Shown here one piece after another: positions 14,860 through 50,922 of a stretch of 64,000 nt of DNA (positions within the stretch are counted from its first letter, which is position 1; the number at the start of each line of letters is the position of its first letter). The translations under genes were made by a program, and so were the position numbers. The notes below the pieces were generated by a model that was not told where the DNA came from, ran no database searches, and saw only the letters and a list, made by a program, of their open reading frames with translations. Source of the DNA: Escherichia coli (GTDB taxonomy: Bacteria > Pseudomonadota > Gammaproteobacteria > Enterobacterales > Enterobacteriaceae); NCBI RefSeq assembly GCF_003991155.1, contig NZ_CP031293.1; one strand, given 5' to 3'.

Positions 14860-16170
14860 CTACACCAACAGCAAAGATATTGCCGGGATATAGGTAATAA
14901 CCAACAGCAGTAAAATAAGACTAACCAGTAGTGGCACCGCTTCTCGCATAAATTGCCCGACAGAAACCTGCACGGTATTACATACCAGCAGCATCACCGT
15001 TCCGACAGGCGGTGATAACGTTCCTAACGATAAGTTGAGGATCATGATGATGCCAAAATGCACCGGATCAATGCCAAAATGAGCCACCACAGGTTTAAGT
15101 AATGGAACTAATATCAGCAGGATGGCACTACCTTCAAGAAACATGCCAAGCACCAGCAGCAATAGATTGATAATCAATAAAAAGACGTATTTATTATCAG
15201 TCAGAGATGTCACAAACTCCGCAACCGTGATACCTGCCCGCTCAAGGGAAAATATCCAGCCCAGCGCGGCACTCGCCATAATGATTAACATGACCGATGC
15301 CGTCGAACGCGCCGTCTCTGAGAGTGCTGTAAATACATGGCTGATTTTCAGTTCGCGATAAATTACAAAACCAATAAACATCACCAATAATACTGCTACG
15401 GCTCCAGCTTCCGTTGGCGTAAAGATATTTGCCCGAATACCACCGATAACCGCAACAATTAAGAACAGTGCTGGCCAGGCCTGCACCAGCGCCACTGACA
15501 CTTCTTTCGGTTTTGGCCAGTGTTCGCTGGAAGGTTTTAAACCGCGCCGAATAGCTACCAGCCATACAGTGACAATCAACATGGCGGAACACAGCAGACC
15601 GGGCAGGATCCCGGCCATAAACATGGAGCCGATGGAGACATCCGCCACCAGTCCGTAAAGGATCAGTGCAATACCCGGTGGAATAATTGGTGTAATCAGC
15701 GAACCACTTGCCGTTATCGCCGCCGCAAAGCCACGGGAATAACCTTTCTGTTCCATTTCCGGCACCATCATGCGCGATAACATCGCAGCATCCGCCAGGT
15801 TTGAGGCGCTAACGCCGCCCATCATGGTACTGACCAGAATATTAGCCCCACCCAGACCACCGCGCATTCTGCCAATCAACACGTTGGCAATTTGCAAAAT
15901 ACGCGCGGCAATACCGGTATAGCTCATTAACGTGCCTAATAAGATAAAAAATGGAATAGCTAACAGCGAAGGGGTTTGCGTCGTGGCAATCAAACGCTGA
16001 ATTGCTACCATTAACGGCACATTTGAATAGCAAAGGAAGTAGGTCAGAATGCCGCAAAACATCGCCAGCCATACCGGCATATTGATAAATAAACAGATGA
16101 ACATAAGCGGAATGATCATTAGCCAGTTATCCAGCCAGCTTCCCGCCAGTAATTCACTCAATGCTGTCAT
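14860..16170 (-). CDS. TRAP transporter large permease (DctM family)
   Basis: 436-aa polytopic membrane ORF; start overlaps the dctQ stop by 1 nt. Confidence 0.85.
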   Translation of the reverse strand: MTALSELLAGSWLDNWLMIIPLMFICLFINMPVWLAMFCGILTYFLCYSNVPLMVAIQRLIATTQTPSLLAIPFFILLGTLMSYTGIAARILQIANVLIGRMRGGLGGANILVSTMMGGVSASNLADAAMLSRMMVPEMEQKGYSRGFAAAITASGSLITPIIPPGIALILYGLVADVSIGSMFMAGILPGLLCSAMLIVTVWLVAIRRGLKPSSEHWPKPKEVSVALVQAWPALFLIVAVIGGIRANIFTPTEAGAVAVLLVMFIGFVIYRELKISHVFTALSETARSTASVMLIIMASAALGWIFSLERAGITVAEFVTSLTDNKYVFLLIINLLLLVLGMFLEGSAILLILVPLLKPVVAHFGIDPVHFGIIMILNLSLGTLSPPVGTVMLLVCNTVQVSVGQFMREAVPLLVSLILLLLVITYIPAISLLLV

Positions 16171-46453: not shown

Positions 46454-47218
46454 ATGAAATTGAATATCCGCGCGCAAACTGCACAAAACCAGCACAATAA
46501 TTCTCCCATCGTTCTTGTCCATGGTCTGTTTGGCAGCCTCGACAACCTTGGCGTACTGGCTCGCGATCTGGTAAACGATCACAATATCATCCAGGTTGAT
46601 ATGCGTAACCACGGTCTTTCACCGAGAGATCCGGTAATGAATTACCCGGCGATGGCGCAGGATCTTGTTGATACCCTGGATGCACAGCAGATCGACAAAG
46701 CAACATTTATCGGTCACTCAATGGGCGGTAAAGCGGTAATGGCTCTTACTGCACTAGCCCCCGATCGCATTGACAAGCTGGTGGCGATTGATATTGCGCC
46801 GGTCGACTATCACGTACGCCGTCATGATGAGATTTTCGCGGCCATCAACGCAGTCAGTGAATCAGACGCACAAACACGCCAGCAAGCAGCGGCAATAATG
46901 CGCCAGCATCTTAATGAAGAAGGGGTGATTCAGTTTCTGTTGAAATCTTTTGTTGACGGGGAGTGGCGCTTTAACGTGCCAGTATTGTGGGATCAGTATC
47001 CGCATATTGTGGGTTGGGAGAAAATCCCGGCATGGGATCATCCTACCCTGTTTATCCCTGGCGGCAATTCTCCGTATGTTAGCGAGCAGTACCGTGATGA
47101 TTTACTGGCACAATTTCCACAGGCTCGGGCGCATGTGATTGCAGGCGCGGGTCACTGGGTCCATGCTGAAAAACCGGATGCGGTATTACGCGCTATCCGT
47201 CGCTATCTCAATGATTAA
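46454..47218 (+). CDS. ybfF: Alpha/beta-hydrolase esterase
   Basis: 254 aa; HGLFGS and GHSMGG motifs. Confidence 0.9.
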   Translation: MKLNIRAQTAQNQHNNSPIVLVHGLFGSLDNLGVLARDLVNDHNIIQVDMRNHGLSPRDPVMNYPAMAQDLVDTLDAQQIDKATFIGHSMGGKAVMALTALAPDRIDKLVAIDIAPVDYHVRRHDEIFAAINAVSESDAQTRQQAAAIMRQHLNEEGVIQFLLKSFVDGEWRFNVPVLWDQYPHIVGWEKIPAWDHPTLFIPGGNSPYVSEQYRDDLLAQFPQARAHVIAGAGHWVHAEKPDAVLRAIRRYLND

Positions 47219-47357
47219 CGCAACTGATTAAAAACCCAGCGTCCGCGTCGCTTTCCGCGCGTGGACGTTGGCGTGACTCCTCACGCTGATGTATTATGGC
47301 GCGCTATCCATCCGGGCAGAGGCCTGGCTGATTGTTTCCCCCGAAGTCACCAAGATC

Positions 47358-47651
47358 ATGGCCAAAGAACAAACGGACCGTACGACATTAGATCTGTTCG
47401 CGCACGAGCGTCGACCGGGACGACCGAAAACTAATCCGCTTTCGCGCGATGAACAGCTGCGTATTAATAAACGTAACCAACTAAAACGCGACAAAGTACG
47501 TGGCCTTAAGCGTGTCGAACTGAAGCTGAACGCGGAAGCTGTCGAGGCACTGAACGAGCTGGCGGAGTCGCGCAATATGAGCCGTAGCGAACTGATCGAA
47601 GAGATGTTAATGCAGCAACTGGCGGCGCTGCGTAGTCAGGGCATCGTTTAA
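47358..47651 (+). CDS. ybfE: Small DNA-binding protein YbfE
   Basis: 97 aa from [27 protein letters not shown]...; internal start chosen. Confidence 0.75.
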
Positions 47652-47790
47652 ATTTCCACTTTCATGTAGCACAGTGTGCAGTCCTGCTCGTTTGCTGATT
47701 CCGCAAGACTGCCTGTTCTGCTATGATTGCCTTTATCCGTGGGCAATTTTCCACCCCCATTTCAATAAGTTTCAAGAGGTTATTTCACTC

Positions 47791-48321
47791 ATGGCTATCA
47801 CTGGCATCTTTTTCGGCAGCGACACCGGTAATACCGAAAATATCGCAAAAATGATTCAAAAACAGCTTGGTAAAGACGTTGCCGATGTCCATGACATTGC
47901 AAAAAGCAGCAAAGAAGATCTGGAAGCTTATGACATTCTGCTGCTGGGCATCCCAACCTGGTATTACGGCGAAGCGCAGTGTGACTGGGATGACTTCTTC
48001 CCGACTCTCGAAGAGATTGATTTTAATGGTAAACTGGTTGCGCTGTTTGGTTGTGGCGACCAGGAAGATTACGCAGAATACTTCTGCGATGCATTGGGCA
48101 CCATCCGCGACATCATTGAACCGCGCGGCGCAACTATCGTTGGTCACTGGCCAACTGCGGGCTACCACTTCGAAGCGTCAAAAGGTCTGGCTGATGATGA
48201 CCACTTTGTCGGTCTGGCTATCGACGAAGATCGTCAGCCGGAACTGACCGCTGAACGTGTAGAAAAATGGGTTAAACAAATTTCTGAAGAGCTGCATCTC
48301 GACGAAATTCTCAATGCCTGA
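47791..48321 (+). CDS. fldA: Flavodoxin 1
   Basis: 176 aa from [27 protein letters not shown]... Confidence 0.93.
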
Positions 48322-48360
48322 TGTGATGCGGCGTAGACTCATGTCTACGCCGTATTAATA

Positions 48361-48379
48361 GATAATGCCAATCAAAATA
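48361..48379 (+). promoter_or_regulatory. Fur-box-like sequence in the fur promoter region
   Basis: GATAATGCCAATCAAAATA matches about 14 of 19 positions of GATAATGATAATCATTATC by eye; a second similar site TATAATGATACGCATTATC is at 48527-48545. Confidence 0.35.
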
Positions 48380-48530
48380 ATTGCTACAAATTTGTAACTT
48401 TTGCTGTTGTACCTGTACAATGTCCCGGTGTTCAAGTGGCCTTGCCGTTGTAAATGTAAGCTGTGCCACGTTTTTATTAACAATATTTGCCAGGGACTTG
48501 TGGTTTTCATTTAGGCGTGGCAATTCTATA

Positions 48531-48617
48531 ATGATACGCATTATCTCAAGAGCAAATTCTGTCACTTCTTCTAATGAAGTGAACCGCTTAGTAACAGGAC
48601 AGATTCCGCATGACTGA
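48531..48617 (+). CDS. uof: uof leader ORF upstream of fur (28 aa)
   Basis: MIRIISRANSVTSSNEVNRLVTGQIPHD-stop; stop overlaps the fur start, consistent with translational coupling. Confidence 0.7.
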   Translation: MIRIISRANSVTSSNEVNRLVTGQIPHD

Positions 48618-49056
48618 TAACAATACCGCCCTAAAGAAAGCTGGCCTGAAAGTAACGCTTCCTCGTTTAAAAATCCTGGAAGTTCTTCAGGAGCCGGACA
48701 ACCATCACGTCAGTGCGGAAGATTTATACAAACGTCTGATCGATATGGGTGAAGAAATTGGTCTGGCTACGGTATATCGCGTACTGAACCAGTTTGACGA
48801 CGCTGGTATCGTCACCCGCCACAATTTTGAAGGCGGTAAATCCGTATTTGAACTGACACAGCAACATCACCACGATCACCTGATCTGCCTCGACTGCGGC
48901 AAGGTAATCGAATTTAGTGATGATTCCATCGAAGCGCGTCAGCGTGAAATTGCCGCAAAACATGGCATTCGCCTGACTAACCACAGTCTCTATCTTTACG
49001 GTCACTGTGCCGAAGGCGATTGCCGCGAAGATGAGCACGCGCACGAAGGCAAATAA
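48610..49056 (+). CDS. fur: Ferric uptake regulator
   Basis: 148 aa MTDNNTALKKAGLKVTLPRLKILEVLQEPDNHHVSAEDLYKRLIDMGEEIGLATVYRVLNQF... Confidence 0.97.
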   Translation: MTDNNTALKKAGLKVTLPRLKILEVLQEPDNHHVSAEDLYKRLIDMGEEIGLATVYRVLNQFDDAGIVTRHNFEGGKSVFELTQQHHHDHLICLDCGKVIEFSDDSIEARQREIAAKHGIRLTNHSLYLYGHCAEGDCREDEHAHEGK

Positions 49057-49071
49057 GCCAGCCTGAACGAG

Positions 49072-49100
49072 AAAAGCCAACCTGCGGGTTGGCTTTTTTA
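49072..49100 (+). terminator. fur intrinsic terminator
   Basis: Stem AAGCCAACC/GGTTGGCTT followed by TTTTTT. Confidence 0.7.
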
Positions 49101-49139
49101 TGCAAGGGAAATAAGAAAAGCGAGAGTTACAGCTCTCAC

Positions 49140-49466
49140 TTATTTGTTATTACTGCGAATTTCCTGCCAGACCTTATCACAATCGGCTTTCACCGCCTGA
49201 TCATTTCCGGTTTGCGTTGCGCGCAGACACTGCTGATAATCCAGTACGCGGACACTTTCCTGGTCGGCAAACTGCTGATGTTGTTTCTCTTTCTTCAGCA
49301 CGTTTAACACGCTCTGGCAGGCTTCAATTTTTTCTGGCGAACCTTGTGCGGTGTTGATACAGGCGCTGTATGCCTCTTTCAGACGACTGTCTTCCTGTGG
49401 CGCGGTTGATTGCACACAAGCTACCAGCCCCGATGCCATTATGGCGATGAGAATCAGTTTTTTCAT
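49140..49466 (-). CDS. chiQ: Lipoprotein ChiQ
   Basis: 108 aa; signal peptide with lipobox LVAC. Confidence 0.85.
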   Translation of the reverse strand: MKKLILIAIMASGLVACVQSTAPQEDSRLKEAYSACINTAQGSPEKIEACQSVLNVLKKEKQHQQFADQESVRVLDYQQCLRATQTGNDQAVKADCDKVWQEIRSNNK

Positions 49467-49515
49467 AGCAAATTCCTCAAACGTGCGGCAGGCACAAAAC
49501 CTGCCGCGTCGGGCA

Positions 49516-50922
49516 TCAGAAGATGGTGAATGGTGCGATTACCATAAATTTCACGTCACGCTCATCCTGGAAGATGTTGCCGTAACCACCGCCCCAGCTT
49601 GGGATGTCGGAGTGGTTGTCGTATTCGGTGAAGTGCAGTTTGAACATCGTGCCTTTGGCGCGACCGTCCTGAATGGTGTACACCGCATCCAGGCTGTAGG
49701 CAGACTCTTCAATAGTCCGGTTTTTATCGTAGTACGCATCCGGATTGCTCTGCCAGGTCGCAGGTTTAGCATCCCATGCGTAAACGTAGGAAGCGCCGAT
49801 GGCGAAGCCTGGAAGATTCCAGTTTTTCAGGTCATACATCGCACCGAAGAAGATCGCTTTTTCGCCGTTGGCGTTGAAGTCGGAACGGTTATCCCACCAG
49901 ATATCCAGGCGACCGTTCGAGGAAGCGTAGGTTGGAGTCATACGTTGCAGGAAGTATCCCTGCTGACCGTCAGCCTTAACCCAGGTACCTTCGAGGCGCA
50001 AATCCACTACGTCAGCCGCCCGGTAACCAAAGGTCAACGCCTGCAGCCAGGCGGTGCCGTCATAAAGATCGTTGACGCTGCGATCGTCAACTTTATCGCG
50101 CGTACCATAGAACTGGTAGCTGGTGGTTAACGGGCTACCGGCGATATCAAATTTGTAGCTGGCTTTGGCAAAATATTGATCGATATACCCTTCGGCCTGA
50201 CCAAACGCCGCTTCCAGTACGAAGTTATTTTTGAAGTCGTACTTCGCCCCAAGGGAGTGTAGATAATCAACTTTGGTGGTTTTATCGTTCTGATAAAACT
50301 CATCCATTTCCAGATGCCACGGTGCTTTGTATTCGTTGGTCCACATGTAGGAGAAACTCAACGCACCAGCATCGCCATAATCAAAATTCGCCCCGGCTTC
50401 CGCCCCCTGATAAGTACCCGGCATAAAGCTCCAGTGCGGCGCTAACAGCGTTTGACCAGTTGGCTGAATGTAACCTGCCCTCGCCCAAACCGGACCGTAT
50501 TTAAATTTAGCCGCCGCTTTATACAGACTTATACCGCTTTTATCGCCGGACCAGTCTTCGTCATAGGCTTTATTACTTTTTGAAAACGCGATTTCGTTCG
50601 GGTGAGAGCTGTCGCCGTTTTCTGCCATTTCAATCGCTGTAAACGCGGCAATATCCAGACCGAACATATCAGCGGCATAGCCAGACTGAAAATCGAGATT
50701 AGCGTTCCAGGTGGAGTGAGAAAGGTTGGTTTTATATTTGTCGCCGTCGGTAACATCTTTACGGTCGCGTTCACGCTGCCAGTAATAGATACCGCCGGTT
50801 AAGGTTGAATCGTCGATGAATCCTTCGGCGCGAGCCTCCGGAATTGCCATAAAGCCCGACATAGCTGTAACACCGGCGATAGCCAGCGCCAGCGTACTAC
50901 GTTTGCCACTAAACGCACGCAT
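49516..50922 (-). CDS. chiP: Chitoporin (OprD-family outer-membrane porin)
   Basis: 468 aa; signal peptide; C-terminal ...FTIF beta-barrel signature. Confidence 0.93.

Follow-up and report, generated by a model that had tools for sequence, protein, structure and literature searches.

The fldA–uof–fur control region of Escherichia coli: a Fur operator overlapping the start codon of the uof leader open reading frame

In E. coli, the short open reading frame (ORF) uof runs into the start of fur and is accompanied by two sequences that resemble Fur boxes. The question raised by this locus was which of the two is the functional operator, and which fur transcripts are able to carry the complete uof. 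The window comprised 64,000 nucleotides of E. coli DNA (contig NZ_CP031293.1), and all positions given below are window positions unless stated otherwise. The first-pass annotation, made by eye, had described a 28-codon leader ORF that ends inside the fur start region, a Fur-box-like sequence over the uof ATG, and a second such sequence at 48361–48379, and it had left the choice between the two sites to a comparison with mapped promoters and Fur footprints.

The identity of the region was evaluated via comparison with complete genomes. A 401-nt slice of the fldA–uof–fur region was 100% identical to E. coli K-12 MG1655, and at least 80% of the slice was present in 5423 of the 5426 complete E. 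coli genomes; the genes annotated in the matching stretch were fldA, uof, and fur. In the MG1655 annotation (NC_000913.3), fur (710200–710646) and uof (b4637; 710639–710725) are both placed on the minus strand; hence, the plus strand of the window is the genomic minus strand. A window position p was converted by g = 759256 − p for NC_000913.3 and by g = 758479 − p for NC_000913.2, the older coordinates used in two papers, and both conversions were verified against the flanking sequences printed in the paper tables. The genes and the upstream boundary of the region were as follows:

47791–48321, plus strand: annotated coding sequence 5′ of the fldA terminator hairpin (RefSeq annotation mapped, with ATG and TGA read; operon cotranscription according to PMC4161252)
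48326–48359, plus strand: fldA intrinsic terminator hairpin and RNA 3′ end (arms 48326–48338 and 48343–48355; Term-seq end)
48531–48617, plus strand: uof, 28 codons (ATG at 48531, TGA at 48615–48617; annotation and NF011344)
48610–49056, plus strand: fur coding sequence, 148 amino acids (NCBIfam NF006999 and annotation)

The fldA terminator was a 13-nt inverted repeat with 92% complementarity, and the Term-seq primary 3′ end at 710897 (NC_000913.3) corresponded to 48359. The Fur protein scored 309 bits against NCBIfam NF006999, the Fur equivalog, which has a cutoff of 146. The uof peptide, MIRIISRANSVTSSNEVNRLVTGQIPHD, scored 85.2 bits against NCBIfam NF011344 (cutoff 71) over residues 1–28 of 28. 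This ORF is annotated as “fur leader peptide” in RefSeq and as “RyhB-regulated fur leader peptide” under b4637 in MG1655. The fur ATG is located at 48610, and the two genes overlap on the same strand by the 8 nt ATGACTGA. Both the 28-codon leader ORF and its termination inside the fur start region were thus borne out. The length of the ORF was by itself statistically unremarkable, and short ORFs were common here, with 55 ORFs of at least 20 amino acids overlapping the 3.5 kb around uof. The sequence, position, length, and fur overlap were all identical to those of b4637 of E. coli K-12 (Vecerek, Moll and Blasi, 2007, EMBO J; NF011344). Compared with the published uof there was no difference, and the only added context was that the major mapped transcription start site (TSS) lies inside the ORF and that only some of the Enterobacteriaceae have this ORF. 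The whole region is the already known E. coli uof leader ORF and the Fur-repressed promoter upstream of fur. The points added here are the answer on the functional site, the caveat from the transcript starts, the automatic nature of the stop/start overlap, and a hairpin within uof.

The sequence over the uof ATG was compared with the Fur consensus GATAATGATAATCATTATC. Site 1, which was TATAATGATACGCATTATC at 48527–48545, matched this consensus at 16 of the 19 positions and contained the inverted repeat ATAATG/CATTAT, which gave it dyad symmetry. It was the sole match with three or fewer mismatches on either strand of the 64-kb window, for which 0.01 were expected from shuffles. Citing de Lorenzo 1988, PMC2189734 (Table 3) gives 709931–709960 (NC_000913.2) as the stretch of the fur promoter that Fur protects from DNase I; this interval converts to 48519–48548 and encloses site 1. 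Because a unique 16/19 match lies inside the published Fur footprint, site 1 is the functional Fur operator of the main fur promoter, and the comparison proposed in the first-pass annotation answers the operator question. The second best Fur-like match in the window (CATAATGATTAACATGACC, 15/19, at 15277–15295) falls within the coding sequence of pxpB and probably arose by chance. The operator and the promoter were positioned as follows:

48519–48548, no strand assigned: Fur operator (DNase I footprint, with the 19-bp box at 48527–48545 inside)
48504–48540, plus strand: main fur promoter (−35 TTTTCA at 48504–48509, −10 TATAAT at 48527–48532, TSS at 48540)

The main promoter, TTTTCA–17–TATAAT, scored 10/12 in the consensus scan, and the elements GTTTTCA and TATAAT and the next GAGACGCATTA were conserved out to Erwinia and Dickeya. 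The first six bases of site 1 are the −10 hexamer of this promoter, and site 1 spans −13 to +6 of the TSS at 48540, covering both the −10 hexamer and the start site. This position is the classic one for repression by promoter occlusion. Fur bound at 48527–48545 would exclude RNA polymerase from the main promoter, resulting in weak autorepression, and weak autoregulation has been reported for fur. The overlap of the Fur box with the −10 hexamer of Pfur-a and the presence of fur TSSs inside uof were also described in PMC7867234. Moreover, the fur operator had two walkers, of which the stronger reached an Ri of 12.3 bits, whereas the values for cir, entC, fecI, and sodA were approximately 20 bits or more (Chen et al., 2007; PMC2189734). 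An Ri lower than those of the classic iron-uptake operators fits the reported weak autoregulation. The operator of de Lorenzo et al. (1988), which was used in the Fur model of Chen et al. (2007), has the same arrangement, with site 1 inside the footprint, matching at 16/19, and overlapping the −10 hexamer.

The transcript starts were taken from a single TSS-seq data set (Kim et al., 2012; PMC3415461, Table S1; NC_000913.2), and the positions were matched to the window by 51-nt sequences. The strongest start in the region was 709939, which is 48540 in the window (46 reads), followed by 710051 (48428, 8 reads) and 710082 (48397, 5 reads). The starts at 48540 and 48428 sit at the expected distances from the scanned promoter hexamers. 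The last two bases of the main −10 hexamer are the A and T of the uof ATG, and the main TSS is located 9 nt downstream of the uof A (48531). Since the uof ATG lies upstream of 48540, transcripts from the main promoter cannot encode full-length uof. The complete uof is present only on transcripts starting at 48428 and 48397 and on fldA read-through RNA, and operon read-through (ybfE–fldA–uof–fur), i.e., past the fldA terminator, has been reported (PMC4161252). The published descriptions include fur-a and fur-b starts inside uof with a separate uof start upstream (PMC7867234), and two transcripts on northern blots, one from Puof and one from a Pfur “located within the uof ORF” (PMC6191717). The first-pass annotation had named mapped starts that exclude the uof ATG from all transcripts as counter-evidence; the strongest start does exclude it, whereas 48428, 48397, and the read-through RNA include it.

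Two RNA ends were found next to the fur start codon:

48603–48611, plus strand: RNA ends at the fur start (5′ end at 48603, i.e., 709876, 28 reads; strong 3′ end at 48611, i.e., 710645)

The 5′ end at 48603, taken from the same TSS-seq table, is 7 nt away from the fur ATG, with the Shine-Dalgarno (SD) sequence on one side and the start codon on the other, in the context CAG↓AUU. The RNase E motif is RN↓WUU, and the context at 48603 fits this motif. No convincing promoter was seen upstream of 48603; hence, it may be a processing site that separates the fur SD from its AUG. The very strong 3′ end at 48611 falls on the T of the fur start codon; in the Term-seq data it was not Rho-dependent, had a low intrinsic-terminator score, and was flagged “uORF”. 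Together with the TSS at 48540, this Term-seq end (Adams, 2021) would define a leader fragment of approximately 72 nt containing the hairpin described below.

The second Fur-box-like sequence was examined together with the promoter behind it. The two features concerned were as follows:

48392–48428, plus strand: upstream (uof) promoter (−35 TTGTAA at 48392–48397, −10 TACAAT at 48416–48421, TSS at 48428; minor TSS at 48397)
48358–48394, plus strand: OxyR-consensus-like site (top window match to ATAGntnnnanCTATnnnnnnnATAGntnnnanCTAT, 14/20; conserved block)

The upstream promoter, TTGTAA–18–TACAAT, is located approximately 110 bp 5′ of the main fur promoter; it scored 9/12 in the consensus scan, and its hexamers were invariant in an alignment of 14 genera. 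Site 2, which was GATAATGCCAATCAAAATA at 48361–48379, matched the Fur consensus at 14 of the 19 positions, was one of four 14/19 sites in the window and thus much weaker than site 1, and spans −67 to −49 of the TSS at 48428. It is contained in the interval 48358–48394, which gave the best match on both strands of the whole window (14/20) to ATAGntnnnanCTATnnnnnnnATAGntnnnanCTAT, which we take to be the OxyR consensus, with four ATAG/CTAT-type elements at 10-bp spacing. This OxyR-like site spans −70 to −34 of the TSS at 48428 and ends within the upstream −35 hexamer. The orthologues of site 2 read GATAAAACCAATCAAAATA / GATAAAACC... in 14 Enterobacteriaceae genera, and by inspection they matched the Fur consensus at approximately 12/19 although the block stayed conserved. 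The higher Fur score of E. coli and E. albertii came from ATG at a place where their relatives have AAA. Conservation of site 2 as a Fur box was therefore not found in the orthologous regions (approximately 12/19, compared with 14/19 in E. coli). Given that site 2 lies inside the top OxyR match and that its orthologues lose the similarity to a Fur box while the block is conserved, site 2 is most likely part of the predicted OxyR site and not a Fur box. Hence, the second sequence pointed out in the first-pass annotation is present as a 14/19 match, but its reading as a Fur box did not hold in the orthologues, and it lies outside the listed footprint. According to the literature, OxyR activates fur and SoxS acts through fldA. 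For the activation of the fur promoter by OxyR (Zheng, Doan, Schneider and Storz, 1999), the array of OxyR-type tetranucleotides seen here directly upstream of the −35 hexamer of the 48428 promoter is a candidate site, as judged by the consensus assumed above.

The consequences for translational coupling were then considered. According to papers citing Vecerek 2007, the translation of fur is coupled to that of uof, and RyhB blocks uof initiation, leading to less Fur. Genetic evidence for RyhB and uof, including compensatory mutations (RyhB G44/C45), is cited in PMC6191717. Codon 6 of uof is Ser-UCA (TCA at 48546–48548), a codon that is, according to the literature, read preferentially by MiaB-modified tRNA, which links its decoding to iron. 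In PMC6191717, it was the short transcript, not the long one, whose level was reported to fall with RyhB, which is hard to square with a RyhB site where uof translation begins, upstream of the main TSS. The best duplex predicted for RyhB at the uof start had −11.9 kcal/mol, which was at the 65th percentile of the window background and thus indistinguishable from background; the published RyhB–uof pairing model was likewise not predictable in PMC3018821. A site within the fur coding sequence (48671–48695, −18.1 kcal/mol) was the best by the seed region; it was discarded, as 15% of the background windows were as good and its codons were not unusually conserved at synonymous positions. The folding of full-length RyhB with the leader RNA gave only meaningless long-range loops. 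No conserved SD was found before the uof AUG in enterobacterial alignments, and no ribosome-profiling supplementary table mentioning uof was found in the literature search.

The SD of fur was located as follows:

48596–48599, plus strand: fur SD core AGGA (10 nt before the ATG; inside a nearly invariant 35-nt block)

The GG of this SD had a predicted unpaired probability of 0.01–0.12 and was predicted to pair with UCC at 48605–48607; the columns were invariant, so covariation lent no support to the pairing. The predicted pairing would be compatible with a need for coupling. The stability of the whole-leader folds did not exceed that of shuffles (z = −1.15 and −0.06). In the long transcripts, an RNA hairpin that pairs the uof AUG was predicted for the Fur-box dyad ATAATG/CATTAT (48528–48544), with an unpaired probability of 0.02–0.14. 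Since the strongest TSS (48540) excludes the uof AUG, coupling is limited to longer transcripts, and in that data set it cannot explain the synthesis of Fur from the most abundant transcript.

Taken together, the locus is very probably the fldA–uof–fur control region with two layers of control, namely, the Fur operator at the DNA level and uof coupling at the RNA level. The anatomy, database identity, RNA ends, footprint coordinates, and conservation entering this model are observations, and coupling, the action of RyhB, and codon-6 decoding are taken from the literature. We infer the exclusion of RNA polymerase, the identity of the OxyR site, and the translation of Fur from the uof-less main transcript. 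In the RNA layer, the upstream promoter (48428), preceded by the OxyR-type site, and fldA read-through would make the longer transcripts that bear the uof AUG. On these transcripts, ribosomes would translate 28 codons and terminate at the UGA within AUGACUGA over the fur AUG, and termination would lead to fur initiation by termination-reinitiation and/or by the opening of the weak, poorly spaced fur SD, as published. RyhB, which is itself repressed by Fur, would block uof initiation, so that Fur synthesis would fall when iron is scarce. The decoding of Ser-UCA at codon 6, which depends on the Fe-S enzyme MiaB, would likewise lower Fur synthesis under iron scarcity. The arrangement resembles GcvB acting on thrL or ivbL and the mdtU–mdtJI system, in which a short upstream ORF (uORF) also governs the downstream gene and an sRNA acts on the uORF start; a Term-seq 3′ end associated with the uORF is a further shared feature. 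In contrast to transcription attenuators, uof has no terminator 3′ of it, the end at 48611 is neither Rho-dependent nor intrinsic according to its Term-seq scores, and the reported control is translation reinitiation.

The leader was further searched for conserved RNA structure, and one hairpin was found:

48562–48582, plus strand: RNA hairpin in uof (TCACTTC, 7-nt loop, GAAGTGA; perfect 7-bp inverted repeat)

From the end of the 3′ arm to the fur ATG, the distance is 28 nt in E. coli and 28–30 nt in nearly all relatives. The hairpin occurred at the same place in all 53 distinct Enterobacteriaceae sequences, with stems as different as ACTTCC/GGAAGT, GCTCC/GGAGC, CGCTCA/TGAGCG, and TGCTTCG/CGGAGCG. 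Stems of at least 6 bp were present in 79% of the sequences and in 17% of the shuffles. The cognate arms paired perfectly in 27 of 48 cases, whereas the value for non-cognate arms was 7% (cis/trans arm test). In a gap-free register class of 21 sequences, which was picked by best pairing and therefore leaves some bias in the covariation figures, 81% of the cells paired compared with 37–46% for slid partners, both sides had changed in five of the nine pairs, and the covariation score was reached by none of 500 shuffles. RNAalifold found no hairpin in the MAFFT alignments of 81 and 64 leaders because loops of differing length shifted the 5′ arms against one another, and this was resolved by per-sequence hairpin calls. 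An Rfam scan of 47000–50000 with E-values up to 1 gave nothing on the fur leader and only sub-threshold chance matches elsewhere. Among these, sub-threshold matches to the enterobacterial sRNA families STnc370 (29.2 bits; gathering score, 54) and isrD lay on the minus strand at 49066–49147, in the terminator region between fur and chiQ, and these are probably due to chance or to the shape of the terminator. No mention of the hairpin at 48562–48582 was found in the fur-leader literature searched. As it occupies +23 to +43 of the main transcript (TSS 48540), the hairpin is a candidate leader element of the uof-less main mRNA, judging from the sequence comparison.

The conservation of the uof frame was evaluated over 80 species-level Enterobacterales loci with the fur start at a fixed position. 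In 36 of the 80 loci, the ORF starting at TATAATG ran in the uof frame up to the fur start, with a length of 28–30 codons, and the frame was kept in Escherichia, Citrobacter, Enterobacter, Kosakonia, Phytobacter, Kluyvera, and others. In the other loci, this ORF ran in another frame (7), met an early stop (24, e.g., Salmonella arizonae, Klebsiella oxytoca, Atlantibacter, and Pantoea), was in the fur frame or read through (5), or lacked the ATG (8). The hairpin at 48562–48582 was thus more widely conserved than the uof frame. The alignment contained indels in mid-uof that were not multiples of three, and the last approximately 35 nt before the fur ATG were nearly invariant over the 80 loci. A TGA across the fur start was present in frame −2 (ATGA) in 80 of 80 loci and in frame −1 (ACTGA) in 77; only L046, L068, and L074 lacked the latter. 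TGA occurs in both non-fur frames because fur begins with ATG ACT GAY, and the stop/start overlap of uof and fur is thus an automatic by-product of fur’s own conserved codons 1–3. In these alignments, uof is a clade-restricted feature that builds on elements (the promoter, the operator, and fur codons 1–3) conserved for other reasons. This restriction is not in conflict with the demonstrated function of uof in E. coli.

Two further observations were made on these alignments. In four Buttiauxella, Dryocola, and Enterobacter sp. loci (L057, L058, L060, and L063), the ATG of TATAATG was in the fur frame, approximately 66–69 nt before the fur start (locus position 1501) and with no stop between, which would give a possible N-terminal extension of Fur by 22–23 amino acids if transcribed. 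In 63 Enterobacteriaceae sequences, the synonymous sites of fur codons 1–17 (48610–48660) were unusually conserved, with the commonest codon at 92–100% for Thr2, Asp3, Thr6, Ala7, Lys9, Gly12, Lys14, Thr16, and Leu17. For Asp3, E. coli itself uses GAT, which is the rarer codon in this set. The conserved codons included the ACT that gives rise to the uof stop, even in taxa without a uof-type ORF.

Other readings of the two sites and of the leader were weighed against the two-layer model. Site 2 might be a second functional Fur operator, e.g., one that represses the upstream promoter through competition between Fur and OxyR; it was one of only six sites with a score of at least 14 in 64 kb, its position at −67 to −49 of the 48428 start overlaps the presumed activator site, and the ATG of E. 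coli and E. albertii raises the Fur score over that of the AAA in relatives. However, the Fur footprint listed for fur comprises only 709931–709960, the orthologues keep the OxyR pattern at a Fur match of approximately 12/19, the site falls within the top OxyR-consensus match of the window, and AT-rich intergenic DNA readily yields partial Fur matches, which together make a second operator quite unlikely. For the short transcript, coupling could in principle be retained through an in-frame internal start such as GUG 48579 (codon 17), with a mini-uORF of 12 codons. A GTG at −31 of the fur ATG in the uof frame was present in most Enterobacteriaceae loci, and the short transcript was reported to respond to RyhB (PMC6191717). 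The conservation of this GTG is, however, explained by its place in the hairpin’s 3′ arm (GAAGTG); the codon was predicted to be paired (unpaired probability 0.01–0.17), no SD precedes it, and no experimental evidence for it was found in the literature. Initiation at this codon was thus regarded as highly improbable.

The conservation data bear on a broader alternative, in which the uof ORF is largely a by-product of other constraints, the conserved cis element is the RNA structure, with the hairpin at 48562–48582 and the invariant ribosome-binding block as its conserved parts, and uof translation adds little to the Fur output of wild-type cells, given that most transcripts start at 48540. The uof ATG is made up of the last bases of the −10 hexamer plus the G contributed by the Fur box, its stop comes from fur codons 2–3, and TATAATG was conserved even where the ORF stops early. 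In almost every taxon, both non-fur frames have a stop across the fur start, the indels in mid-uof disregard the reading frame, and the nucleotides encoding the conserved C-terminal “EVNRLATGQIPHD” were equally conserved in taxa without the frame. Furthermore, the hairpin at 48562–48582 has compensatory changes, and the major TSS is 48540. Nevertheless, the published genetics, as cited in later papers, tie fur translation to uof, and the compensatory RyhB/uof mutations behave as expected. In 36 species of many genera, indels of 3 nt (ATG at −79 or −82) left the frame intact, several substitutions in the 3′ part of uof were synonymous (AAC/AAT and CGC/CGT), and the TSS read counts represent one data set under one set of conditions. 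The by-product reading was therefore considered unlikely. A related proposal has a somewhat better, though still tentative, chance: the widely conserved regulatory part of the enterobacterial fur leader may lie in an RNA module and not in the peptide-coding uof ORF, with the module formed by the covarying hairpin and the invariant ribosome-binding block on the uof-less 48540 transcript, perhaps with a stable fragment of approximately 72 nt (48540–48611), and uof coupling may be a lineage-restricted addition on minor, long transcripts driven by oxidative stress. The two-layer model, with the operator at site 1 and coupling on the longer transcripts, was retained as the preferred reading.

A textbook locus was thus rediscovered, and its leader ORF and operator were recognisable from the raw sequence. 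At this locus, the uof start codon, the −10 hexamer, and the Fur operator share the same few bases. As a result of these shared bases, the Fur-repressed promoter yields a transcript that is unable to encode full-length uof, and the model of RyhB acting through uof coupling accordingly applies only to the longer transcripts. Moreover, any mutation of the uof ATG on the chromosome also alters the Fur box, and a change of its A or T also alters the −10 hexamer of the main fur promoter.
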